64,000 nucleotides of DNA. Origin: a bacterium. GTDB taxonomy: Bacteria > Patescibacteriota > Minisyncoccia > UBA6257 > GWB1-50-10. Below are positions 4,484 through 63,748 of the stretch, in pieces. The DNA is taken from contig JAKAHD010000003.1 of assembly GCA_021815205.1 (NCBI GenBank), forward strand, positions 27,239 through 91,238. Reading direction: 5' to 3'. Position numbers and translations under genes: made by a program. Below the pieces are notes generated by a model. That model was not told the DNA's origin. It saw only the letters and a list, made by a program, of their open reading frames with translations, and did not search any database. Position 1 is the first letter of the stretch, and each line of letters opens with the position of its first letter.

Positions 4484-4683
4484 AATATAACTCTATGTGA
4501 AACGAGCAGTAAGGTCAATTGATATGAGAAATTTGCCCCTACAAAGCAGAGGAATTTAAACGCTGATTTATACTGATAAGGCTGATGTGTGCCGATAACG
4601 AAGATACTTCTCCGCCGAAGGCATATCAGCATGAATCAGCTATACTCCCAAACCTAATCATGGGTGGGAGGTAAATCGGCGCC

Positions 4684-17187: not shown

Positions 17188-17535
17188 TTATTGCGGACGC
17201 GAAAGCATCTCTTCCCTCGCACGACGAAGTTTTGCGGTACCCTGGTACCTTTTCCACGCGTGCCACTGAAACTCGCGGAACGCGTCTTCCGCGCCGGAAA
17301 TCACACGACCGTGTTTCATAATTTCAAATTGAAGAAGAGGCGATGCGGTATACGCGTCCACCAGGTCTATCTTCTCTTCGGGAATGGATAAAAGCTTCGC
17401 CGCGTTTTCGAGAGACGCAATCTTTTCCTCAAAAGAAAGGGGGCGGGCGGCATACACCGCCACATCAAAATCGGAGTGAGGGCTCGAAAAACCCGACGCC
17501 CGGGAACCGAATAAAATAAGAAGCGCGGACTGCAT
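17188..17535 (-). CDS. Pol-beta-superfamily nucleotidyltransferase (MNT-like)
   Basis: LFGSRASG...DFDV nucleotidyltransferase motif; no adjacent HEPN partner seen. Confidence 0.55.
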   Translation of the reverse strand: MQSALLILFGSRASGFSSPHSDFDVAVYAARPLSFEEKIASLENAAKLLSIPEEKIDLVDAYTASPLLQFEIMKHGRVISGAEDAFREFQWHAWKRYQGTAKLRRAREEMLSRPQ

Positions 17536-17550
17536 ACCTCCCATGGTACC

Positions 17551-18186
17551 CTACTTCCCCGCGGGAGTCGAGGTTGCGGTGCCGTTCACAAAGGCGGCCA
17601 TGTTCTTATCGCTCGGCCAGAGGGAAATAATTTTTTCACCCACCGTCTTCGCGTCCGCGGTTTTTCCCGCATCCATATAGAGTTGGTAGAGTCCGTAGAG
17701 GAACTGCGGACGTTTCGGGCTCAAGGCAAGCCCTTTCTCATAGAGCGCGAGGGCGGCATTATAATCTTTCTCACTCCTGTAATTTCTGAAATTCACCTCG
17801 TGGATATTCGCGAGCGTCATAAGCTCCTGCGTGTAGTTCAAGCCGTATCGCCCCGGCGCATTCGCGCGGGAAATAGAATCGGCGTAGGAGACGAGCGCGT
17901 CCGCGATCGCCTGCGGCGGTTTCTGCGCGATCACGCCGCCGATCTGGTTCTCTAAGAATCGGATGTTCTCGGCCTGCCCCACGGGAGAAGAGAAGTTCAG
18001 TGCCGTATTAAAAATACGCTCGTAATCCGCGACACTCCTCGCCTGATAGGAATTGTGCATCGCCTGAATAAAAAGCTGGGCCTTGCGGAACGGGAGGAAG
18101 GAGCCGTAGATCAAGGCGAGGACGGCAAGGATAATGCCGAGAGGAGCCGCAATTGTTTTGATTATTTTTTCTAGTGTAGTGTTCAT
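17551..18186 (-). CDS. Hypothetical membrane-anchored TPR-like protein
   Basis: N-terminal TM helix, helical repeat content; no recognisable catalytic motif. Confidence 0.4.
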   Translation of the reverse strand: MNTTLEKIIKTIAAPLGIILAVLALIYGSFLPFRKAQLFIQAMHNSYQARSVADYERIFNTALNFSSPVGQAENIRFLENQIGGVIAQKPPQAIADALVSYADSISRANAPGRYGLNYTQELMTLANIHEVNFRNYRSEKDYNAALALYEKGLALSPKRPQFLYGLYQLYMDAGKTADAKTVGEKIISLWPSDKNMAAFVNGTATSTPAGK

Positions 18187-18251
18187 TTTAAATTTTACAT
18201 TCTAAATTTTAATTCAATTTTAATTTTCTAATTTTAAAAACTTTTAGTGGT

Positions 18252-18614
18252 TTAATCTTTACCATTCATCGTTCCGACAATTTTTCCGAAAATCATAGAG
18301 AGTCCTTGGGCCTCGTTCCATAAAACTTTTATCTCATCCCGCTTATCTGGGGAATGTTTTGCAAACATTCTGAGCCAATGTTTTGTTTCTTGGGCTTCTT
18401 TTTTACAAATGTGTATTTTGTTTTTGAAATCTTTCCTCGAACTCGCGCCATTTGCTTCCATATAATTTGCTCCTACGCTTGTCGCTGCACGGACGAGCTG
18501 ACTGATAAGCGGCGTTGAAATGACATCTCTCGGTATGGATTTACAAAACATAATAACATTTTCCCCAAATACAGCTGTTCTTTCTTCTAAGTTGTACGGC
18601 GCTGTTTTGTTCAT
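18252..18614 (-). CDS. Four-helix-bundle protein ('23S rRNA intervening sequence' protein family)
   Basis: LEERT--F---V---C--IP------L--QL-RA-TSVGANY-EA---SS-KDF--K---C-KEA-ET--WL pattern; flanked on both sides by AT-rich spacers. Confidence 0.75.
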   Translation of the reverse strand: MNKTAPYNLEERTAVFGENVIMFCKSIPRDVISTPLISQLVRAATSVGANYMEANGASSRKDFKNKIHICKKEAQETKHWLRMFAKHSPDKRDEIKVLWNEAQGLSMIFGKIVGTMNGKD

Positions 18615-20124: not shown

Positions 20125-20223
20125 TTTTTTATACGGATGACCGCTGATTGCTGGCTGATTACCGCTGATTATCTTGCGGATGACCGCTGATAAAAGCGAT
20201 AAAAGGATTATACTATAAATGAG

Positions 20224-20640
20224 ATGACAACGGGAGATGGGGAAAATAGGGTAAACGATTTCTTATATGAAGACGCTTCGTACAAATTACGCGGGTGCGT
20301 TTTTAGAGTATACAACACTTTGGGTTTTGGACATAAGGAGGGCGTGTACCAAAAAGCTCTTGCGGAAGAATTCTTAAAATCGGGTTTAACATTCGAAAGG
20401 GAAAAAACAATTCCCATAATCTATAACGGAAAACAAGTAGGGACATATCGGCCCGATTTCACTATCGAGGGCACCATCATCCTTGAAATCAAAGCGGTTG
20501 AATTTATGCCGAAAAGCTACGAAACGCAACTCGTATATTATCTTAAAGGAACAAATTATAAGCTCGGCTTCCTTGTGAATTTCGGCGCCGCAAAGCTAGA
20601 TATGAGAAGACGAGTCTATACGCCTGCCGTATCAGTGTAA
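20224..20640 (+). CDS. GxxExxY family protein (PD-(D/E)xK-like)
   Basis: RPDF-IE---ILEIKA ... YY(L)K-T-YKLGFLVNFG signature of GxxExxY family. Confidence 0.7.
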   Translation: MTTGDGENRVNDFLYEDASYKLRGCVFRVYNTLGFGHKEGVYQKALAEEFLKSGLTFEREKTIPIIYNGKQVGTYRPDFTIEGTIILEIKAVEFMPKSYETQLVYYLKGTNYKLGFLVNFGAAKLDMRRRVYTPAVSV

Positions 20641-20662
20641 ATCAGCTTGCAATCAGCGGAAA

Positions 20663-23248
20663 TCAGTTAGGAAAAACCTGAATATTGGAATTACTCCCAC
20701 TTGAAGGTGATGTCGGGGAAGGCAACTGAATCCCCAGCTGATTGAACACGGGCTCGAGCTGGGACCACATCGGGGTCGCGCGGAGATCAATTTCCTTCGC
20801 GAGCGCTTCGAAGGCGGCTTTTGCCTCCGCGTTCTTCCCCCAGAGGTAGTACGCGACCGCGATCTTCAGCCGTATCTCGTTATGTTGGTTCGCACCCTGC
20901 GCCATCGCAAGCGCCTGGGTGTAATATCCGATCGCCGCGCCGTACTTCTGCTCCTCGTCGCCGAGAATATCCCCGAGCGCGGTCGCCTCCTCCACGGAGC
21001 GCGGCACGCGCCCCAACGCCTTCGCCTTCGCGATCTCCGCGTCTCCCGTCTTCGCATCCTTCAACTGGTACGCGAGAAGCCCGAGGAAAAAGTGCGGATC
21101 GCCCGCCTCTGGATTCAGACCCACCGCCGTTTTGAAGGCGTCGTAGGCGCCCTGCGTATCCCCCTCGAGCGCCTTCGTCTTCCCGATCACGTAGTACGTC
21201 TGCTGGCGATTGGGGCTCAACTCGAGTGCTTTTACTTCGAGCTCGCTCGCCTCTTTCAGATAGTTCGGGTTGAACGTATGAAACGTGTTCTTCACTTCCG
21301 CAAGCGTATCATAAAAGAGATAGTTCTTCGGATGATCGTCGACGACCGCCTGCATTTCGTCCACGACTTTCTTCTGGAGTGTCTGTATGTTGGGAAACTG
21401 GATGCCACTCTGATATCCTTGATTGATCACGCCCTCGAAGGTGAGCCGAATGTCATCGCGATACGGTGTCGGAACCGCAAGCGCCTCCTGCGCCGCACCG
21501 AGCGACTCCGGAATCATCCGGTTCAAGTAATAATTCGGAATCCAGTACTCCCTTCCCGCGCCGTACACCATCTGCCAGTTTAGAAAGATCACGGGGATGA
21601 GAGAGAGCACGAGGAATGGATATGCGAATGGCACAGATTTCCGCTGATTCTCTTGGACGCTGATTGATGCCGATTGGGCTGATTGATGCCGATACGCCGA
21701 ATCAATGAAGGCGATCACGAGAAAGAACATGAGGTACGTGCCGATCGTGTCGAAGATTACGAGATTCCGGACGAAGTATGCCGCGAGCATACCGAGAAGA
21801 ACGATACGTAGCCGATTACCGCTGATTGTAAGCTGATTACCACTGATTCCTCCGATGCCGCGGATTTTCAGAAGCTCATAGAGGAGCGTTACCCACACGC
21901 CGAGGTAGGCGAGGAGGCCCGCGATGCCGCCCGTAATCGCGTACTCGATAAGGACATTGTGCGGCTTGTCCCAGTAGGTTTCGCCGAAGGTGTTTGTGAG
22001 CAGCGCGGGGTTGTAGTGCTTCTGGAACGCGAGATTGAAGTTCTCCCATCCGAACCCGAATACGGGATGCGCCGGGAACGATTCCGCGGCGCTCTGCCAC
22101 GCGAGGAGGCGGTTCTCGAACTCGTTCCGCACCGTCCTAAAGTTTTGAATGCGATCGAGGCCCGGCACGTGGGACCAGAAAGATGCGCTACGGGTGAAAT
22201 AAAAAATACTGCCGAGGGCAATTACAATTACCAAGACGATGAGCCAGGGATTCTTGTAGACGGATGACCGCTGATTGCTTGCTGATTGCCGCTGATTCTC
22301 CATGACGGATGACCGCTGATTGCTTGCTGATTGCCGCTGATTCTCCATGACGGATGACCGCTGATTGCTTGCTGATTGCCGCTGATTCTCCATGACGGAT
22401 GACCGCTGATTGCTAGCTGATTGATGCTGATACCGGACGGCAAGAAGAAGAATGATAAGCAATAATCCCGCGAGGAGTCCCGCGATGTCGCCGCGGGTCT
22501 GGGTTTTGAAAATTGCCACTACATCCACCAAAGAGATACAAAGGTAGAGCCACCTATCCCTCACTCTTGATACCAGTTGAGGCCTACTATTCTGGACGCT
22601 GATTGATGCTGATTGGGCTGATTGATGCTGATCCATAAAAAGATGGATCCCAATGAAGACGTTAAAGAGTAGGTAGCCCGCGAGGAAGGTGGGGTTGCCG
22701 AACGAGGAGCCGGGGCGGGCGATCCCCTGCTCCAGAAAGAGATCATTCACGAAGGGAACGAAGGAAAAAAGAGCGCCCAGGGCGGCGGCGAGACTTGTCC
22801 ACACGCTCACGCGCCACACCTTTTTCCAGTCGATCGCGTCGCCAAGCGACGAGAGCGCGAGAAAGAGGAGCGCGAAGAACCAGAGCGAGACGACTCCCAA
22901 GGTGCGCGTCTCCTGCGACCATAAGCTGTTCAAAAGATCCTCGCCGAGGAACGCGGAGATCGTGAGAACGGACATAAAGACAAGCACTCCTATGGTGAGG
23001 GGGGTGAAGCGCACCCCCACGGATGACCGCTGATTGCGTGCTGATTGCCGCTGATTGCTAGCTGATGACCGCTGATAAAAAACAAGGGCGAGCCACAAAA
23101 GGATGATGATGCCCGTGAAGGACTGGAAGAGCGCGGTCTTTACGACGATAAAGGGGTTCATCGTCCACTTCCAGAAAAAAAGCGGGACGAGGACGACCAT
23201 TGAGTAGAGGCAACCTCTGATAATTTTGAGAACTGAGTTTTCGGACAT
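20663..23248 (-). CDS. O-antigen ligase-like membrane protein with C-terminal TPR domain and internal 15-aa tandem repeats
   Basis: Multi-TM N-terminal region with GFGWENF motif; C-terminal TPR repeats; MENQRQSASNQRSSV x3 encoded by perfect 45-bp DNA repeats. Confidence 0.65.
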   Translation of the reverse strand: MSENSVLKIIRGCLYSMVVLVPLFFWKWTMNPFIVVKTALFQSFTGIIILLWLALVFYQRSSASNQRQSARNQRSSVGVRFTPLTIGVLVFMSVLTISAFLGEDLLNSLWSQETRTLGVVSLWFFALLFLALSSLGDAIDWKKVWRVSVWTSLAAALGALFSFVPFVNDLFLEQGIARPGSSFGNPTFLAGYLLFNVFIGIHLFMDQHQSAQSASISVQNSRPQLVSRVRDRWLYLCISLVDVVAIFKTQTRGDIAGLLAGLLLIILLLAVRYQHQSASNQRSSVMENQRQSASNQRSSVMENQRQSASNQRSSVMENQRQSASNQRSSVYKNPWLIVLVIVIALGSIFYFTRSASFWSHVPGLDRIQNFRTVRNEFENRLLAWQSAAESFPAHPVFGFGWENFNLAFQKHYNPALLTNTFGETYWDKPHNVLIEYAITGGIAGLLAYLGVWVTLLYELLKIRGIGGISGNQLTISGNRLRIVLLGMLAAYFVRNLVIFDTIGTYLMFFLVIAFIDSAYRHQSAQSASISVQENQRKSVPFAYPFLVLSLIPVIFLNWQMVYGAGREYWIPNYYLNRMIPESLGAAQEALAVPTPYRDDIRLTFEGVINQGYQSGIQFPNIQTLQKKVVDEMQAVVDDHPKNYLFYDTLAEVKNTFHTFNPNYLKEASELEVKALELSPNRQQTYYVIGKTKALEGDTQGAYDAFKTAVGLNPEAGDPHFFLGLLAYQLKDAKTGDAEIAKAKALGRVPRSVEEATALGDILGDEEQKYGAAIGYYTQALAMAQGANQHNEIRLKIAVAYYLWGKNAEAKAAFEALAKEIDLRATPMWSQLEPVFNQLGIQLPSPTSPSSGSNSNIQVFPN
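22261..22420 (-). repeat. Perfect 45-bp tandem repeat x3 plus partial 4th (CTGATTG-rich), in-frame in CDS
   Basis: ggatgaccgctgattgcttgctgattgccgctgattctccatgac repeated head-to-tail with 100% identity. Confidence 0.95.
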
Positions 23249-23368
23249 GAGTACAGATTAACATTGATTTCTTCTCCTGTCATTTTTGGGGACGCGGATT
23301 TATGCTGATTTCACTGATTTATGCCGATACGACATCAGCACCCATCAGCCTTATCAGCATCTATCAGC

Positions 23369-31001: not shown

Positions 31002-31184
31002 AGGATGAAAATTTTTAATTTAAAATTTGAAATTTTTATTGGATTTTAAAATTGATTAAAAATTAAGAATTTCAAATTAAAAATTAAAACTCTTCAGTTA
31101 TTATAAGGTATCCTACTCCTTTTGGGTAAGATTAGCAAATGGGTACTCTGAGTGCTAATTAACTTCCCCGAGAGATATTGGGGA

Positions 31185-33426: not shown

Positions 33427-33575
33427 ATATTTTTTATGTTTCCTTCGACAAGATATAGTATAGCATAAAAACGACGGAATTTTAAATTTCAAGTTCTACG
33501 TTTTAAATTAATTTTAATTTTTTCAATTTTAAAATTCGCTCATTCAATTAAAATCTGAAATTTAGAATTTAAAAT

Positions 33576-35183
33576 TTATTCAAGTATTTTCTTCATCCTC
33601 TTCACCGCCTCCCTTATTTCCGCTTTCGTGGTATAGATCCCGAAACTGAAACGGACGCTTCCCCGCACGCGCTCCGAAGGGAGATGAAGCGCCTCTAACA
33701 CATGAGACGGGGCATACGATCTTGCACTACACGCGGAGCCGGAAGATGCCGCAATTCCCGCCATATCCATCTTCGTGAGCAGATCTCCCGCAAACTCCGT
33801 CGGAAAATAGACGTTCAGGATATGCGGCGCCGTATCGCTTCTTCCTTTATTCCTCCTTCCTGATTCCTGATTCCCGTTTATCGATGCCGGCGGATACACC
33901 TTCTTCAATGCTCTCCAAAAGTAATCTCTGATCTCCGTCACCCTCTTCACGTTTCTTGCGCGCTCCTTTTCCGCAAGGCGCGCCGCCTCACCGAACCCCG
34001 CGATCGCGGGCACGTTTTCCGTGCCTGAACGAAGGCCGAACTCCTGGCCGCCCCCCGTCACGAGCGGCTGCACCGCCCGCAAATCCGAATTTCGAAATCC
34101 GAAATCCGAAACCACGCTCTTCCCATTATTCTGAGTTCGCCTACCGGCGAACGAAGAATCTCCACGTAGAGATCCTTCACTCCACTCAGGATGACGTACT
34201 ACTCTCGAATTTCGTACATAGAGTGCTCCCGTTCCCTTCGGGCCGTAGATCTTCTGCGAGGAGAGCGTCATAAGGTCGACGCCGAGCTTTGCCGTATCAC
34301 AATTGAAATACTCGAATGCCTGCGCGGCATCAACGTGGAACAACGGATACGTTGTTCCAAAATCCGAATTTCGAAATCCGAAATCCGAAATACCGTTTCG
34401 TGCTTTTAATTTCGTGCTTCGAATTTGTTTCGAATTTCGTGCTTCGAATTTCGTATTTTGATAGTTGCGGATAATATCCGCAATTTGAGCGATGGGTTGT
34501 ATGGAACCAATCTCGTTATTCACGTACATCACCGACACAAGCACGGTGCGTTCATCGAGCGATGATTCGAGTTTCTTCATGTCCACAATTCCCTTCTTAT
34601 CGACGGGGAGCACCGCAATTTCCACTCCTTCTCTCTCGAGCGAGTACGCGGTGTCGAGCACGGATTCGTGTTCGATCGCCGAAACAATTATTTTAGGACG
34701 CTGATTTACGCTGATTGCTAGCTGATGACCGCTGATTTTATTTTTTATACCAGAGATCCTCCGCCTCGCGTGTTTTTCAAGGAATATCTCGGAGCTCTCA
34801 CGAGCTTGGTCTCCGAAGGAACCATGAGAGCGAGAGCGCATGACGTCTTCCGCCGCTGGAGCGGAAGAACGGCCGGTTCCGCGAGAAGCAAAAAGAGCGC
34901 TTCTCGCCACCCCGCGGAGCGCAAGGTTGTTCGCCTCGGTCGCGCCCGAGGTAAAGATCACCTCGCGGAACCTCCCGTTAATCGCCTTCGCGATCGTCTC
35001 CCGCGCCTTGTCCACTGCGCTCATCGCCTTTTGCCCGAAGGAATGCAAAGAACCAGGATTCCCGAAGTTGTCGGAAAAATACGGGAGCATTATTTTTCTC
35101 GCCTCGCTCCGCACCGGAGTCGAAGCGGCGTAGTCCAAATAAATCCTTCTCATTAAGATTGAATAACGGTAATGAGGCGGCAA
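33576..35183 (-). CDS. Cysteine desulfurase (NifS/IscS family) carrying four in-frame low-complexity insertions (true start may be 35153)
   Basis: YLDYAASTP, FTSGATEANN, PLP-lysine region SSQKIYGPKG, GGGQE-GLRSGTENV, C-terminal active-site SSGSACS; 535 aa vs about 385 typical; inserts map onto DNA repeat elements. Confidence 0.8.
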   Translation of the reverse strand: MPPHYRYSILMRRIYLDYAASTPVRSEARKIMLPYFSDNFGNPGSLHSFGQKAMSAVDKARETIAKAINGRFREVIFTSGATEANNLALRGVARSALFASRGTGRSSAPAAEDVMRSRSHGSFGDQARESSEIFLEKHARRRISGIKNKISGHQLAISVNQRPKIIVSAIEHESVLDTAYSLEREGVEIAVLPVDKKGIVDMKKLESSLDERTVLVSVMYVNNEIGSIQPIAQIADIIRNYQNTKFEARNSKQIRSTKLKARNGISDFGFRNSDFGTTYPLFHVDAAQAFEYFNCDTAKLGVDLMTLSSQKIYGPKGTGALYVRNSRVVRHPEWSEGSLRGDSSFAGRRTQNNGKSVVSDFGFRNSDLRAVQPLVTGGGQEFGLRSGTENVPAIAGFGEAARLAEKERARNVKRVTEIRDYFWRALKKVYPPASINGNQESGRRNKGRSDTAPHILNVYFPTEFAGDLLTKMDMAGIAASSGSACSARSYAPSHVLEALHLPSERVRGSVRFSFGIYTTKAEIREAVKRMKKILE

Positions 35184-35751: not shown

Positions 35752-35847
35752 TTTATTATAAATTTTAATTCTAAATTTCAAATTTTAAATCAATTTAAAA
35801 ATTTTAAAATTTAAACATTACGTTATTGAATAAAAATTTAAAATTCG

Positions 35848-36495
35848 TCATTTATATTTCGGGTGTTCTTCCTTCGCCTTGAGCAGGTAGTTTGCGTACC
35901 GCGCGAGCGCGAAGAGCATGCTTGAGAGACGATTCAGAAACTGGAGGAACTCGGGGGAAAGCTTCGCGCGTTTCCCAAAAACGATCGCGGAGCGCTCGGC
36001 GCGGCGCGCGATTGCGCGCGCGATATCGAGCTTCGCGGAGAGTTCGCTTCCTCCCGGAAGCACGAAGTTCCGGAGCGTGGGGAGCAGAGCATCAATCTTC
36101 TGGATCATGTGTTCAAGTCGCGCGGTCTTTGCCTCGGTGATACGCGGAATTTCTTTCACGGAATAGGTAAACCCAATCGAGGCGATCTCCGCCTGCGCGA
36201 TGAAGAGGTCTTCTTGCAGATCCTCGAGCGACCGCAGAACGAGCGCGCCCGACCCGTTAGGAATCTCGTCTCCTCCAGATGACCCAAGCGGCTTCCGGGG
36301 CGGGCTATTTCTAACGGGGCCCGCTTTCTTCTTTATGAAAACCTTTTTCGCCTCGATGCGGCACAGTCCGAACCACGAGTTCAGTTCGTCGAGGTTCCCC
36401 AAGAGCTCAAAAAGTGCATCGTCTTTTTCAAGGCGCTTGTTACCGAAGGAGCTTCTTCCCCCATCCCCTTTTCCGGTAAAAAACTGGGTCTTCAT
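35848..36495 (-). CDS. PduO-type ATP:cob(I)alamin adenosyltransferase family protein
   Basis: TGKGDGG N-terminal motif and LEDLQEDLF helical signature of PduO/MMAB family; contains a low-complexity insert. Confidence 0.6.
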   Translation of the reverse strand: MKTQFFTGKGDGGRSSFGNKRLEKDDALFELLGNLDELNSWFGLCRIEAKKVFIKKKAGPVRNSPPRKPLGSSGGDEIPNGSGALVLRSLEDLQEDLFIAQAEIASIGFTYSVKEIPRITEAKTARLEHMIQKIDALLPTLRNFVLPGGSELSAKLDIARAIARRAERSAIVFGKRAKLSPEFLQFLNRLSSMLFALARYANYLLKAKEEHPKYK

Positions 36496-38252: not shown

Positions 38253-39050
38253 ATGCAAAAATATACTATTACTCTCCTTAAAAAGGAGGAGGTTGCAACA
38301 GGAACGATGTCCTTTCTTCTCTCCCGCCCCGAAGGGTTCGTATTCAAGGCCGGCCAGCACATTGATCTCACCATCCCGAATCCGCCCGAAAACGACGACG
38401 AGGGGAATGTCCGCACCTTCTCGCTCGCGAGCGCACCAGAGGAAGAAGGGCTTCTCGTCGCGACACGGATGCGCGACACCGCCTTCAAGCGAGTATTGAA
38501 ATCCATGCCGGAGGGAAGCGCGCTCGAGATGGACGGACCCTACGGCAACATGATCCTCCAGTCGAACACCTCACGTCCCGCGGTCTTCCTCGCGGGCGGG
38601 ATCGGCATCACGCCCTTCCGCAGTATGATATTCGAAGCGGCCTTGAAGGGCCTGCCGCATAAGATATTCCTCTTCTACTCCAATAGGAAGATTGAGGACG
38701 CCGCGTTTCTCGCTGAGCTTCGCGCACTCGAGAAAAAGAATGAAAATTACAAACTCATCACGACGCTCACCGCGCCCGAAGCGGCGCAATCCGGAAAGAG
38801 CGACGAGACGGGCTATATCACGGAGGCGATGGTGAGAAAATACATCCCCGACTTCCTCTCTCCCGTTTCCCCCCGCACCGAAAGAGCTGTTCACAACCTA
38901 TCTACAACAAAGGGTGGTAACCCGCTTTCTGGTGTGGGGGTGTATTACCTCGCGGGCCCGCCCGCGATGACGGGCGCGATGCGCGAGATGCTCTCGAGAA
39001 GCGGCGTGAGCGAAGATGATATACGAATGGAAGAATTTTCCGGATACTAA
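38253..39050 (+). CDS. FNR-like FAD/NAD(P)-binding oxidoreductase
   Basis: RTFSLAS (RxYS-type FAD site), VFLAGGIGITPF NAD(P)-binding motif. Confidence 0.6.
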   Translation: MQKYTITLLKKEEVATGTMSFLLSRPEGFVFKAGQHIDLTIPNPPENDDEGNVRTFSLASAPEEEGLLVATRMRDTAFKRVLKSMPEGSALEMDGPYGNMILQSNTSRPAVFLAGGIGITPFRSMIFEAALKGLPHKIFLFYSNRKIEDAAFLAELRALEKKNENYKLITTLTAPEAAQSGKSDETGYITEAMVRKYIPDFLSPVSPRTERAVHNLSTTKGGNPLSGVGVYYLAGPPAMTGAMREMLSRSGVSEDDIRMEEFSGY

Positions 39051-53935: not shown

Positions 53936-54152
53936 CAAAAAAGGAATTTTTAATTTACAATTTCTAATTTTTAATCAATTTTTAAGACAAAAATGTTTTA
54001 ATTTTTAAAATTAGAACATTCGCTCATTGATTAAAAATTTCAAATTAAAAATTCAAAAATTCTTCAATGAAGTAATCGGTTTTTCGCGTTTTCCTGAATT
54101 CAATCAGCAGTGAAGAAAATTCTAGAGACTTGCGCGAAGAGCTAAATAACGT

Positions 54153-59946: not shown

Positions 59947-62900
59947 CTATTGCAACTTTCTCAATCCAATCCAAATATCGGATTCGTTGATTTTTGTGTC
60001 ACACTCCGCATCGAACTTCTCGGAGCGCTTCCACTCGACCGATGCGGCATTCGTTTCTTTCTTAATAAGGGCGGTGTTCTTCTCGACGATACTCGCGAAC
60101 TCCTTGTCCCCCTCCATCATGAGCGCGATCGTGTCCTTCGGCTCAAGCCTCGCGTCCTGGCGCAATCCCTGGATCGTGCGCATAAGCTCGCGGAGCATTC
60201 CCTCTTCGCGGAGTTCGTGTGTAATCTCCGCATCGAGCACGAAGTCCTCCTTGAGATTTTTGTCGAAACTGATTGTCTTCACATTGATTTCGTCTTTGAG
60301 TATCTCCAAAAGTTCTTTCTGGCCGCTTAATTCCTGATTCCTAATTCCTAATTCCCGTAAAGGTTGTCTCACCTTTATTCCCCGTTCCGCCCGCTTCGCG
60401 AGGACCGCGCTCGCCAAGTCGCGTACTTTCGCCATATCGGTCAATAATTTTTGATTTTTGATTTTTGATTTTTGATCTACCTTCGTCCACTCCGCCATAT
60501 GCACCGAGAGCCCTTTCCCGTCGAGCGAGAGGTAGAGCGATTCGGCAAAGAAGGGGGTAAAGGGCGCCATAAGTTTCGCGGTCTCAAGAAGCGCATACCG
60601 GAGCGTCGCGGATGCCGCCGCGTAGTCCTCTTGACTTTCCGGTTTCTGGAGCCGCCGCCGCGACCGGCGGATATACCAGCGCGAGAGGTCCCCCGCAAAA
60701 TTCTCGATGTTCCGCGCCGCGGTCCCTATGTCGTAGACATTCAAACTCTTTGTCACCACATTGATCGTCTCATTGAGCCGCGCAAGGACCCATCTGTCAA
60801 GAATGTGCGAAGGTTTTAGGTTTAAGGTCTTAGGTTTTAGGTTTCTATCGGAATATGTTTCGCAGAAGACATAGGAGTGATACAAAAGTTGGAAGAACTG
60901 GCGCGAAACTTTTCCGAGATCCGCCTCATCAAACCGCTTGGGCTCGCCCGGCGGATTCACGGTGTAGCAATACCACCGGACGACATCAACGCCGTACTTC
61001 GCGATCATGTCCCACGGGCTTACGATATTCCCCTTCGACTTCGACATCTTCTGCCCGTGCTTATCGAGAATAAGCCCTAAGGCGATCACGTTCTTATAGG
61101 GTGCCTCAAGTCCCAAGAGCGTCGCGAGCGCGAGGAGCGTATAAAACCAGCCGCGCGTCTGATCAATTCCCTCGACGATATAGTCGGCGGGAAAATCGAT
61201 CTTCTTTATGAGCGCTTTGAGATTCTGCGGGGTGAGCTTTGGTGTCTTGGCAGTGAGCTTCAAATTGAACCTGAAGGGAAAGTGTTCCTGGGCGAAGGGC
61301 ATCGCACCAGAATCAAACCACACGTCCATCACTTCCGGTACTCGATGCATCGCGGTTTTGCACTTCGGGCACTCCACGGAAAATTCGTCAATGTAGGGAC
61401 GATGCAGATCAAACTCGCCCGTCTCGCTTCTCGGTACGGAACGCAGGGTGCCATACTCCACCTCGCCGTTCTTTACGTAATCCTCGCCGCGCCTATCCTT
61501 CTCGGCGACCGCGTCCGTACTCGTCCATCCCTGCATAATATGCTGGAGCATCCAGACGCACGATTCGTGCGTCACAATAAGAATCGTCTTCCCTTGATAT
61601 TTCTTCTCCATCTCACGCACAAAATCATAGAGTCGCGCGCGCAAATCGGCGAAGCTCTCCCCGTTCGGCGCCCGCTTCAGAAACTTCTCGTGGCGCGAAC
61701 CGTAGTATCCTCGGTACGCGTCATACGGCATGTCGTTGAAGTCGCCAAAATCGAACTCGCGGATACGCGCATCGAACACGATCTTCGGAAGCGAGAGCTT
61801 CTCCTTGAGCACCTCGGCGCTCTCCTTGGTGCGCGTGAGATCGGAGGCAAAAAAGAGATCAATCTTTTCCTTCTTTATTTTTCGTGCGGCGGCCTCGATC
61901 TGCGTTCTCCCCTTCAAGGTGAGGTGGTACGGCTTCTTCTCGGGCCAGCTCACGACCATATGCTTTGTATTGCTCTCCGCCTCGCCGTGGCGGATGAAGA
62001 TGTACTTGTTTGTGCTCTTCGGCGCAAGTGATTCAAGATCCTTCACGCTCCCCGGCACATGCGCCTTCCCGCACTGCTCGCACTGCCAGATCGGCAAGGG
62101 AGTGCCCCAGTACCGCTCGCGGGAAACCGCCCAATCCTTCACCTCGCGAAGCCACTCGCCGAAACGCCCGTCCTTAATTGTTTCCGGAACCCAGTTGATC
62201 TTTTTATTTGAAGCGAGGAGTTTCGAGCGAAGCGAGCTCATCGCGATAAACCACGAGTCGCGCGCATAGTAGAGGAGCGGCGTACCGCACCGCCAGCAGT
62301 ACGGGTAATCGTGCGTATATTCTTCGGTACGGAGGAAGAGGTTTTTTGACTTTAAATATTCAAATATCAGTTCCTCCGTTTCTTTGCTTTTCACGGAGCG
62401 TCCCTCAAGTTCCTTCACGTCCTTTGTAAACTTCCCTTGTTCATCCACCGTGTGGTGCTGCGGGAGACCGATTCTTTTTCCGAGATTATAATCGTCTTCT
62501 CCGTACATCACGGCGGTGTGCACGACGCCTGTGCCGTCCGTCGTCGTCACGAAATCAGCGGGATACACTTTATATGAGGTGTCGGATTTAAGCGCAGGCA
62601 CGTCGAAAAGCGGCTCGTACTCTAAACCGATCAGATCCTTTCCTTGTATCGTAGTAAGTATTTTGTATTCAGTAGTAAGCACCTTGCTCGCTAAATCTTG
62701 AGCAACAATGTAATTCTCCCCCGTATCCTTACTGCGCACTACTTGATATGTAATACTTTTCCCCACGGCGAGCGCGACATTCCCGGGAAGCGTCCACGGG
62801 GTTGTGGTCCAGGAAAGAACATAAATGTCTCCTCGAGTTTTTAGTTTCGAGTTTTTAGTTTTTAGTTTGAATTTTATATAGACTGAAGTATCCTTCACTT

Positions 62901-63501
62901 CCTTGTATCCCAACGCGAGTTCGTGCGAAGAAAGCGCGGTGCCGCATCGCGTGCACCACGGCACTACCTTATGGCCCTTGTAGAGCAGTTTCTTCTCCCA
63001 AATTTGTTTCAAAAGAAACCACACCGATTCGATGTAGTTGTTCTCATAGGTTATGTAGGGATTTTTAAGATCGAGCCAGAAGCCCATACGGCGCGTAAGA
63101 CGCTCCCACTCGTCTTTGTACTGCCAGACGGACTGTCTGCACGCCTCGTTGAACTTCGCGATACCGTACTGTTCGATCTCCTTCTTCGATTTCAGGCCGA
63201 GTTTTTTCTCGACCTCGAGCTCCACGGGAAGCCCGTGCGTATCCCACCCCGCGCGGCGCGGGACGTAGTAGCCGGACATTGATTTATAGCGAAGTATTAT
63301 GTCCTTGAAACTTCGCGAGAGTACGTGATGGATGCCGGGGCGGCCGTTTGCGGTGGGAGGTCCTTCATAAAACACGAATTTTCTTCCCCTACTCTCTCTT
63401 CGTGCGGCAAGGGATTTTTCGAATACCGAATTTTCTCGCCAAAATGAAAGTATTTTTTCTTCTATTTCGGGGAGAGAAAATTTCTCAAGTCTGCGCAACA
63501 T
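59947..63501 (-). CDS. ileS: Isoleucine--tRNA ligase with inserted histidine-phosphatase (PGM-like) domain and several micro-repeat insertions
   Basis: HIGH-region PPTANGRPGIHH, editing domain (TTPWTLPGN), KMSKS; aa about 531-735 form RHG-type phosphatase domain (IFIRHGEAESN...ILIVTHES). Confidence 0.85.
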   Translation of the reverse strand: MLRRLEKFSLPEIEEKILSFWRENSVFEKSLAARRESRGRKFVFYEGPPTANGRPGIHHVLSRSFKDIILRYKSMSGYYVPRRAGWDTHGLPVELEVEKKLGLKSKKEIEQYGIAKFNEACRQSVWQYKDEWERLTRRMGFWLDLKNPYITYENNYIESVWFLLKQIWEKKLLYKGHKVVPWCTRCGTALSSHELALGYKEVKDTSVYIKFKLKTKNSKLKTRGDIYVLSWTTTPWTLPGNVALAVGKSITYQVVRSKDTGENYIVAQDLASKVLTTEYKILTTIQGKDLIGLEYEPLFDVPALKSDTSYKVYPADFVTTTDGTGVVHTAVMYGEDDYNLGKRIGLPQHHTVDEQGKFTKDVKELEGRSVKSKETEELIFEYLKSKNLFLRTEEYTHDYPYCWRCGTPLLYYARDSWFIAMSSLRSKLLASNKKINWVPETIKDGRFGEWLREVKDWAVSRERYWGTPLPIWQCEQCGKAHVPGSVKDLESLAPKSTNKYIFIRHGEAESNTKHMVVSWPEKKPYHLTLKGRTQIEAAARKIKKEKIDLFFASDLTRTKESAEVLKEKLSLPKIVFDARIREFDFGDFNDMPYDAYRGYYGSRHEKFLKRAPNGESFADLRARLYDFVREMEKKYQGKTILIVTHESCVWMLQHIMQGWTSTDAVAEKDRRGEDYVKNGEVEYGTLRSVPRSETGEFDLHRPYIDEFSVECPKCKTAMHRVPEVMDVWFDSGAMPFAQEHFPFRFNLKLTAKTPKLTPQNLKALIKKIDFPADYIVEGIDQTRGWFYTLLALATLLGLEAPYKNVIALGLILDKHGQKMSKSKGNIVSPWDMIAKYGVDVVRWYCYTVNPPGEPKRFDEADLGKVSRQFFQLLYHSYVFCETYSDRNLKPKTLNLKPSHILDRWVLARLNETINVVTKSLNVYDIGTAARNIENFAGDLSRWYIRRSRRRLQKPESQEDYAAASATLRYALLETAKLMAPFTPFFAESLYLSLDGKGLSVHMAEWTKVDQKSKIKNQKLLTDMAKVRDLASAVLAKRAERGIKVRQPLRELGIRNQELSGQKELLEILKDEINVKTISFDKNLKEDFVLDAEITHELREEGMLRELMRTIQGLRQDARLEPKDTIALMMEGDKEFASIVEKNTALIKKETNAASVEWKRSEKFDAECDTKINESDIWIGLRKLQ

Positions 63502-63748
63502 GGTAGTTATTGTAATGGGGAAGCGGAATTTTCGCAAAACACGGACACCGAATTTTAAATATCCATCATATGAGAAAACCCACCATAATATGCGCACACA
63601 TCCGCCCCTCAAAAGTAACGATTACTAAATCAATTTAGTACAACGGAAGGAGGTCTTGCCTCAATATGATGTATTGAAGCGAGGCGTCCTGATTTTAGAG
63701 TACGTGTATCCGCGTAAATCAGTTTTAAATCCGCGGTAATCCGTTTTT

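Follow-up and report, generated by a model that had tools for sequence, protein, structure and literature searches.

In-frame repeat elements at four sites of a patescibacterial cysteine desulfurase gene suggest colonisation resembling that by Rickettsia palindromic elements

In a 64,000-nucleotide stretch of a Patescibacteriota genome (GCA_021815205.1, contig JAKAHD010000003.1; the whole stretch is called the window below), a cysteine desulfurase gene of the NifS/IscS type carries about 140 extra codons, all of them at four sites that we designate A to D. We consider it probable, though well short of certain, that four permissive loops of this IscS have been colonised, much as genes of Rickettsia are by Rickettsia palindromic elements (RPEs), by at least three families of repeat elements under constraint at the nucleic-acid level. 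The putative colonisers are a 138-nt element with a three-way junction (site A), a heptamer-armed hairpin of about 100 nt (complete at site B, right arm at site C) and an array of GCTGAT boxes (site A), the set of inserts being completed by a heptamer tract at site D and nested GC-rich hairpins at site C. The anatomy of the inserts, their family membership and dispersal, the covariation, the substitution pattern, the conservation of frame and the predicted loop location were all established directly. The original prediction had described four in-frame inserts in an otherwise canonical NifS/IscS, made of the same short repeats that litter intergenic DNA; its observation was confirmed, with alignment to IscS structures delimiting the four inserts, and its interpretation was partly supported and is extended here. 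The features are listed in Table 1.

Table 1. Positions of the host gene, its inserts and related repeat features in the window
Feature	Position	Strand	Translation or remark
Host gene, NifS/IscS-type (group I) cysteine desulfurase	33576..35153	(-)	525 aa from ATG 35153 (P0001)
Site A part 1, structured element: closing helix and two internal hairpins (three-way junction)	34761..34898	(-)	read in frame as ALFASRGTGRSSAPAAEDVMRSRSHGSFGDQARESSEIFLEKHARR
Site A part 2, GCTGAT-box array, box spacing about 10-11 nt	34693..34745	(-)	read as ISGIKNKISGHQLAISVNQR
Site B, heptamer-armed imperfect hairpin (about 100 nt)	34357..34454	(-)	read as TKFEARNSKQIRSTKLKARNGISDFGFRNSDF
Site C part 1, right arm of the site-B hairpin family	34078..34115	(-)	read as VSDFGFRNSDL
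Site C part 2, nested GC-rich hairpins replacing the hairpin left arm	34116..34205	(-)	read as RVVRHPEWSEGSLRGDSSFAGRRTQNNGKS
Site D, short one-armed heptamer tract (GAATCAG)n	33834..33880	(-)	read as NGNQESGRRNKGR
PD-(D/E)XK nuclease gene 20224-20640 within box-bracketed region	20134..20666	(+)	Pfam PDDEXK_3, E = 9e-35
Five in-frame GCTGAT-box arrays in Wzy_C/TPR membrane-protein open reading frame 20663-23248	21643..23076	(-)
Intergenic hairpin of opposed GCTGAT-box arrays	23295..23368	(+)	fold z = -4.15, 0/200 shuffles
In-frame heptamer tracts of isoleucyl-tRNA synthetase	60325-60358, 60441-60481, 60811-60845, 62836-62871		read RELGIRNQELS, VDQKSKIKNQKLL, NLKPKTLNLKP, FKLKTKNSKLKT

The host gene and its four variable sites

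The open reading frame (ORF) spans 33576..35183(-), or 535 amino acids (aa) when counted from an upstream in-frame TTG at 35183. Its product matched the Pfam Aminotran_5 model in four stretches (E = 1e-65, 222 bits against a cut-off of 21.5), and blocks 3-85, 154-226, 271-316 and 361-523 aligned to solved IscS, leaving three large gaps, to which a smaller one of about 9 aa is added. Orthologs without inserts are 376-385 aa long, which puts the excess at about 140 aa, close to the 150 or so first proposed. All homologs of the protein came from Patescibacteria (Wolfe-, Lipton-, Ryan- and Giovannonibacteria, Minisyncoccia), with lengths of 376-569 aa. The expected NifS/IscS landmarks are in place: the catalytic cysteine loop SGSAC is present, and in an alignment of 108 orthologs the pyridoxal-phosphate (PLP) lysine K301, the catalytic C475 and residues H162, D275, Q278 and R501 were invariant. 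AlphaFold returned a class-V aminotransferase fold (predicted template-modelling score, pTM, 0.81; Foldseek TM by target 0.84-0.92 to NFS1, IscS and NifS), with a per-residue confidence (pLDDT) of 90-97 in the core and 41-63 in the four inserts, and on this model the insert sites are predicted to be surface loops, of low confidence on a confident IscS fold. Because the NCBIfam equivalog cut-offs were not reached (NifS 344 bits against 531; IscS 321 against 548 and 643), we assign the product to the cysteine desulfurase family of NifS/IscS type and not to IscS or NifS proper. Peptides encoded inside the inserts include SSAPAAEDVMR and NSDFGTTYPLFHVDAAQAFEYFNCDTAK.

Length excess and repeat content of this kind are unusual for a housekeeping gene and could be taken for signs of a decaying pseudogene or an assembly artefact, an idea we rejected as hardly credible, since the ORF is uninterrupted, every catalytic and PLP-binding residue is conserved, the core keeps a strong coding signature (pairwise nucleotide identity of 0.76/0.83/0.42 at codon positions 1/2/3 among five syntenic orthologs) and the same phenomenon recurs in more than 100 orthologs from many projects. 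The independent public assembly GCA_027460805.1 matches the window at 100% over 21,578 nt and the exact protein occurs on nine contigs, which makes an artefact of assembly unlikely. The gene is thus intact, and sequence and fold together predict a functional cysteine desulfurase. An intein or a self-splicing intron was likewise ruled out, as the protein matched no Hint/intein domain in Pfam and the DNA no group I or group II intron model in Rfam; the inserts measure 36-200 nt.

Across 120 Patescibacteria orthologs compared over 384 core columns, length variation is concentrated at the same four sites as in the window. At least 5 extra aa were found in 69 orthologs at site A, 80 at site B, 90 at site C and 68 at site D, and at least 15 extra aa in 49, 60, 65 and 19, respectively, while at each of the four sites many orthologs have no insert at all. 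The insert peptides group into recurring families, one family being found at different sites in different orthologs, and unrelated families fill one site in different lineages. Carriers are scattered over the core-protein tree, a single-protein neighbour-joining tree of the IscS core that is indicative only. Within a 21-kb syntenic block of three genomes, IscS has four large indels and two other genes have one each, with none in ClpB, HtrA, GDH or MgtC. Had the inserts been lineage-typical loops unrelated to intergenic repeats, the original prediction would have failed by its own account; the four positions are indeed hypervariable across the 120 orthologs, and yet the insert content is repeat-derived and changes between lineages.

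Element families at the four sites

Most of insert A is formed by a non-repetitive element of 138 nt, and this complex part of the insert is common to five syntenic orthologs. Among them the element shows identities of 0.73/0.66/0.64 at codon positions 1/2/3, a profile so flat compared with that of the core that the insert lacks a coding signature, and aa identity is 0.50 for the element and 0.70 for the core. RNAalifold folded it into a closing helix and two hairpins with 51 pairs. In the five-sequence alignment 90.6% of cells were paired (slid controls 42-49%), 25 pairs showed double changes (4-9) and the covariation score was 0.48 (at most 0.19); with eight copies the values were 91% (43-50%), 44 of the 51 pairs (15-21) and 0.70 (at most 0.21). 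None of 500 shuffles matched the observed percentage paired, the double-change pairs or cells, or the covariation score in either alignment. Fitting the eight-copy alignment to the model biases it towards the structure; the five-sequence MAFFT alignment, which is independent, agrees. No Rfam 15 family was matched (best 12-26 bits against gathering scores of 34-211). The inserts had at first been called simple-sequence-like, a description that overlooked this element, the largest of them.

With a covariance model we found one copy in the window (34761-34898, 120.9 bits) and three site-A-type copies within 11.5 kb at the Wolfebacteria locus L215: an intergenic one that directly follows a stop codon (81 bits) and two in IscS, antisense at site A (62 bits) and sense at site B (46 bits). 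Read on the opposite strand, the copies reach no more than 9-35 bits, and G.U pairs outnumber A.C pairs by 18 to 6, which suggests that the polarity is intrinsic to the element and independent of host-gene direction, and in turn points to a single-stranded form of one particular strand. What is conserved in the element is its internal loops and one helix.

Such a pattern raises the question of whether the inserts are mobile DNA at all, or host-selected cis-acting RNA elements of the IscS mRNA (acting in stability, processing or translational pausing at domain boundaries) whose frame is kept because they sit within the coding region. Conservation at the nucleotide level without third-position relaxation, strong covariation with conserved loop sequences, wobble pairs favouring the strand that is the mRNA sense in five genomes, recurrence at the same four IscS positions across a wide clade and the scarcity of copies elsewhere all suit this explanation, which we nevertheless regard as rather unlikely: L215 carries the same element antisense at site A as well as in an intergenic spacer, the hairpin family described next lies in unrelated spacers and genes, many orthologs are insert-free at each site with carriers scattered, and the same site holds unrelated families in different lineages. 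Site A of the closest ortholog (L084 10001-11500) contains a different palindrome, CCTGCCTGCGCAGGCCTGCCTGCGCAGGCAGGCAGG, read as PAQACLRRQAG (z = -5.6), and protein P0061 has a related peptide, DACLRRQG, at a further position.

The hairpin at site B is built of a left arm with CGAAGCACGAAAT, an A-rich loop and a (CGGATTT)n-like right arm. The 31-mer AAATCCGAATTTCGAAATCCGAAATCCGAAA is present in two exact copies, at 34081-34111 and 34360-34390 (none expected by chance; 0 of 100 shuffles), and a period-14 array of TTTCGTGCTTCGAA occupies 34396-34454 in 4.4 copies; all the repeats that the original prediction listed were found at or within a few bases of where it had placed them. Besides the repeats that it named, insert C holds two GC-rich hairpins (stems GAAGGATCTC..GAGATTCTTC and GTTCGCC..GGCGAAC), this part being single-copy in all DNA examined. 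Insert B folds as a long imperfect hairpin (dG -33.5, z = -5.06, 0 of 200 shuffles) and insert C (34075-34205(-)) as three hairpins (z = -3.82, 0 of 200 shuffles), with z between -0.2 and +1.2 for three core coding controls; both strands of the heptamer-hairpin inserts fold, as expected for DNA palindromes.

The site-B inserts of the window and of locus L082 (from Hainich groundwater) are equal in length and clearly homologous, and the hairpin is complete in L082, at site C as well as at site B. Between genomes, copies of the hairpin share 82-95% identity, host cores being 66% identical and their third positions 39%; at third positions the hairpin element reached an identity of 0.74, the core 0.48. 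The mean column identity over nine copies from six genomes was 82%, with 49 invariant columns, and the non-repeated parts CGAAGCACGAAAT and AAACAAAT are conserved across the six. The B and C copies, about 280 nt apart, are usually mutual best matches within a genome, which we read as gene conversion between them. RNAalifold placed this hairpin in a register different from that of the single-sequence fold and found almost no covariation; since heptamer arms pair in several registers covariation is uninformative here, and the support for the hairpin lies in sequence conservation and folding energy.

A model of the hairpin (R3) scored 97.9 bits at site B of the window and located full-length copies in spacers of sister genomes, between MgtC and IscS in L084 and between HtrA and ClpB in L209. 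It also matched about twenty unrelated metagenome contigs, and 9 of the 23 matches examined had no open frame across them. The 19-mer of the arm is present in at least 120 metagenome stretches and lies in frame inside genuine GatA, UvrD, MtnA, YggS, UppS and BioA-type aminotransferase genes, and likewise in GT4, TsaD, CHAT and kinase genes, all on low-GC contigs. A phmmer search with the 40-aa site-B peptide, which has too little power, gave two matches, a spurious-looking ORF carrying the element twice and a translated repeat array. Arrays of (CGGATTT)n and full hairpins of them were also seen in metagenome contigs (loci L087-L166) of 0.35-0.70 G+C, among which ORF calls in the high-GC contigs are unreliable; given that range of composition, the hairpin family, or convergent look-alikes of it, extends well beyond Patescibacteria.

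At site D, Tandem Repeats Finder reported ATTCCTG at 33849-33874 (period 7, 3.7 copies), and this short tract has no fold; besides site D of other orthologs, its ESGIRN family occupies sites A, C and D in L084, where relatives of the tract form hairpin arms at all three. The heptanucleotide simple-repeat class applies to site D and the hairpin arms only. Period-7 tracts number 14 per 100 kb in the window, 5.2 in related Patescibacteria loci and 1.0 in control bacterial loci. The window holds nine of them against zero to three for each of periods 4-6 and 8-12, so that, multiples of three aside, seven is the preferred unit length, and seven of the nine lie inside ORFs. As seven is coprime to three, a heptamer tract encodes the same peptide in all three frames.

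Had the inserts arisen where they stand, through slippage during replication and strand switching templated by hairpins on short seeds, they would be lineage-typical low-complexity loops, with no copying between loci. Such an origin would account for the period-7 enrichment, the like of which has been ascribed to polymerase slippage (PMC4679880, PMC4692102), and for site D and four tracts in isoleucyl-tRNA synthetase (IleRS), which are one-armed tandem arrays without fold, and the 45-nt array repeated 3.8 times in the Wzy gene is a recent tandem duplication. We hold this origin to be very unlikely for the inserts as a whole, because slippage cannot yield a non-repetitive 138-nt element, nor copies at other loci or in opposite orientation, and because the non-repeated hairpin parts CGAAGCACGAAAT and AAACAAAT are conserved in six genomes, the same hairpin occurs in sister-genome spacers and the site-A box array is 94.6% identical to a copy 11 kb away.

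The catalytic domain encoded by the IleRS gene itself (59947-63612(-), 1221 aa) is parted into two halves by a complete histidine-phosphatase domain (His_Phos_1, aa 538-696; aa 539-686 are matched by PDB phosphatase 1ebb), and solved IleRS align in two stretches that skip it.

The GCTGAT boxes are the family that expanded in this genome. GCTGATT boxes lie in IscS at 34700, 34710 and 34731; window-wide there are 38 against 9.5 +/- 3.0 expected, and nine GCTGAT-box clusters were found in the window and none in 23 related loci. Over 37 nt the site-A array is 94.6% identical to 23040-23076, inside the Wzy-like ORF, and it also matches the intergenic segments 20142-20170 and 20641-20666. It is absent from four orthologs that share the 138-nt structured element, and is thus a lineage-specific addition. 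An opposed-array hairpin like the one in Table 1 lies between genes at 4562-4650. The PD-(D/E)XK nuclease gene has four direct boxes upstream and four inverted boxes downstream, arranged like terminal inverted repeats, and could be a cassette or encode an enzyme linked to the box family; the DNA examined contained no second PD-(D/E)XK gene. In the Wzy_C/TPR ORF a 45-nt unit is repeated 3.8 times at 22259-22431 (97% identity, read as (NQRQSASNQRSSVME)n), a candidate length-variable loop. Adjoining the nuclease are genes for a four-helix-bundle protein of the 23S-rRNA-intervening-sequence type (18252-18614(-)) and a Pol-beta-type nucleotidyltransferase (17188-17544(-)), which lie between two O-antigen-ligase-like genes in a cluster of small accessory-type genes.

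That the inserts are the repeats of intergenic DNA therefore holds for the GCTGAT boxes in this window, for the heptamer hairpin in L084 and L209 and for the site-A element in L215; the AAATCCG hairpin has no intergenic copy in this window, only in sister genomes, and the heptamers of the AT-rich spacers of the window are a different set, full of stops. These spacers (33478-33578, 35755-35819, 31008-31089, 54030-54062, 18185-18238) have 6-20% G+C against about 52% for the window and consist largely of degenerate AATTTTA-type heptamers, closed in all six frames.

Two further inserts relative to syntenic orthologs were noted nearby. The cobalamin adenosyltransferase gene has one of 33 aa (36247-36345(-)) that folds no better than shuffles (z = 0.04) and shares an exact 21-mer with locus L001, where it lies just upstream of that genome's IscS; the other, of 25 aa, is in a gene for an NAD-binding protein (38865-38940(+)) and folds as a hairpin (z = -2.5). 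Low-GC islands were tried as a proxy for inserts and dropped as far too noisy, because G+C differs widely from gene to gene.

Reading frame, proposed route and limits

Stop codons are depleted in the elements. Four of six frames are open in the hairpin (shuffle mean 0.61), all six in its arm and three in the 138-nt element (shuffle mean 1.25), and GCTGAT boxes are stop-free in one orientation only, the one that they have in genes. Among 24 IscS genes that were delimited with tblastn, independently of gene calling, all 28 inserts of at least 10 aa are in frame and free of stops, which argues for translation but does not prove it.

The alternative is that the mature enzyme has canonical length, the inserts being excised from the mRNA, where the closing helix would juxtapose their ends, or skipped by the ribosome. 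The closing helix of the site-A element does join its 5' and 3' ends, the encoded peptide shows no protein-type constraint (aa identity 0.50 against 0.70 in the core; flat codon-position profile) and the inserts are predicted to be disordered; we still consider removal highly improbable, since lengths in multiples of three and freedom from stops in 28 of 28 inserts would be needless if they were removed, as would the stop depletion of the elements themselves, and no known ribozyme or intron family was matched. Splicing of mRNA in this manner is not known from bacteria.

We therefore return to colonisation. The colonisers would be small, non-autonomous, hairpin-forming repeat elements that live mainly between genes and reach genes by landing there or by recombinational copying. 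A copy inside a gene would survive only if its length were a multiple of three, it held no in-frame stops and it lay in a loop that tolerates extra residues; survivors would then be translated as disordered loops. Sequence constraint would come from nucleic-acid structure on one particular strand of the element and not from the encoded peptide, and copies inside one gene would be homogenised by gene conversion. That the elements are mobile, the route by which they move and their translation in preference to removal are what we infer from these patterns.

Several observations weigh against this account. Scanning the ORFs of the window revealed no transposase, inspection of the junctions by eye showed no target-site duplication, and no terminal repeat proved to be conserved; neither the three L215 copies nor the five site-A copies have closing stems related in sequence, unlike those of classical MITEs (transposable elements of the miniature inverted-repeat type). 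Of the families present in the 64-kb window, the GCTGAT boxes alone occur in multiple copies; the site-A element has one, and neither it nor the heptamer hairpin is found outside IscS there. A broader model found no more site-A-type copies in 863 kb of other loci, which marks this family as low-copy and patchy. The 90% protein cluster has one member, with no close strains in databases, and no recent insertion was directly observed. The neighbouring ClpB, HtrA and GDH are insert-free, and random insertion followed by filtering does not obviously explain the richness of IscS. Finally, translation of the inserts is itself deduced from frame and stop content.

It is also conceivable, if quite unlikely, that the 138-nt element, and perhaps the heptamer hairpin, belongs to a new class of strand-specific structured mobile element, or represents small intervening sequences removed from mRNA. 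In such a class the conserved core, not the ends, may be the functional part, spread would proceed through a single-stranded DNA or RNA intermediate into hairpin loops and coding loops across Patescibacteria, and a host nuclease such as the box-bracketed PD-(D/E)XK protein could be the mobilising enzyme.

Relation to known repeats and significance

RPEs, palindromic elements of about 150 bp, form several families, and roughly half of the elements lie in frame within unrelated genes, where an insertion is tolerated (PMC10969869); the likeness to them drawn in the original prediction holds well. The present elements are also some 100-150 bp long with palindromic secondary structure (44 of 51 pairs covarying in the 138-nt element; z = -5.1 for the hairpin of about 100 nt), and they too form several families found between genes and in frame in unrelated housekeeping genes, these families being the site-A element, the hairpin, whose arm occurs in ten unrelated gene families, and the GCTGAT boxes in spacers, Wzy and IscS. 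Like RPEs they sit at positions tolerated by the protein fold, here by prediction (pLDDT 41-63 in inserts, 90-97 in the core). They differ in coming from another phylum, with presumably unrelated sequences, in including a family built of heptanucleotide repeats, in the stacking of several families in one gene at four hot spots that recur across the clade, in copy numbers that look low, and in a clear continuing structural constraint, seen as covariation, with both orientations within the same gene.

The elements resemble MITEs, REP/BIME, ERIC, BOX and Correia elements in being short, non-coding, hairpin-forming, dispersed and mostly intergenic, and, as with small interspersed repeats, GCTGAT arrays stand in inverted pairs, both in spacers and on the two sides of a gene. 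Occasional in-frame intragenic copies have been reported for ERIC and others (PMC10969869). In contrast to MITEs, the present elements have no terminal inverted repeat that is conserved, the junctions showed no target-site duplication by eye and the window ORFs scanned included no partner transposase, and the site-A element keeps its internal core and lets its terminal helix vary freely; the GCTGAT boxes, with their inverted arrays around the PD-(D/E)XK gene, may still be MITE-like.

A preference for period 7 is shared with other bacterial heptanucleotide repeats (cyanobacterial STRR, GGGNATC of Xanthomonas and Nostoc, TAACTGA of Beggiatoa), for which slippage of the polymerase over a 7-nt footprint has been hypothesised and which are mainly intergenic and under-represented in coding DNA (PMC4679880, PMC4692102). 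In this window, by contrast, seven of nine tracts lie in ORFs, tracts are often paired into hairpins, and the unit differs from genome to genome. Conserved enzymes of AT-rich parasites such as Plasmodium also carry disordered, fast-changing surface loops, which are homopolymer-like and driven by composition. The IscS inserts are likewise disordered, rapidly changing loops at surface positions of a conserved enzyme, as far as prediction tells, but they belong to defined DNA families that have relatives between genes and a secondary structure that is conserved.

Colonisation of housekeeping genes by in-frame palindromic repeats has so far been treated largely as a Rickettsia curiosity; a 2024 review considered it merely conceivable outside Rickettsia (PMC10969869), and our literature searches found no description of it in Patescibacteria. 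The same process would now be seen in the candidate phyla radiation (CPR), in an essential enzyme and at four hot spots common to more than 100 orthologs, with several element families stacked in one gene and inserted DNA held under nucleic-acid constraint while it is read as protein. Should the elements prove to be removed from mRNA instead, they would be the first small intervening sequences of bacterial protein-coding genes. If colonisation is general, it would explain much of the unexplained length variation and many low-complexity segments in CPR proteomes, and such segments should not be modelled as protein features. Three element models, one of them strongly covarying and without a counterpart in Rfam, would then be at hand for genome-wide searches, which would offer a way to study the interplay of selfish DNA with protein evolution in minimal genomes.

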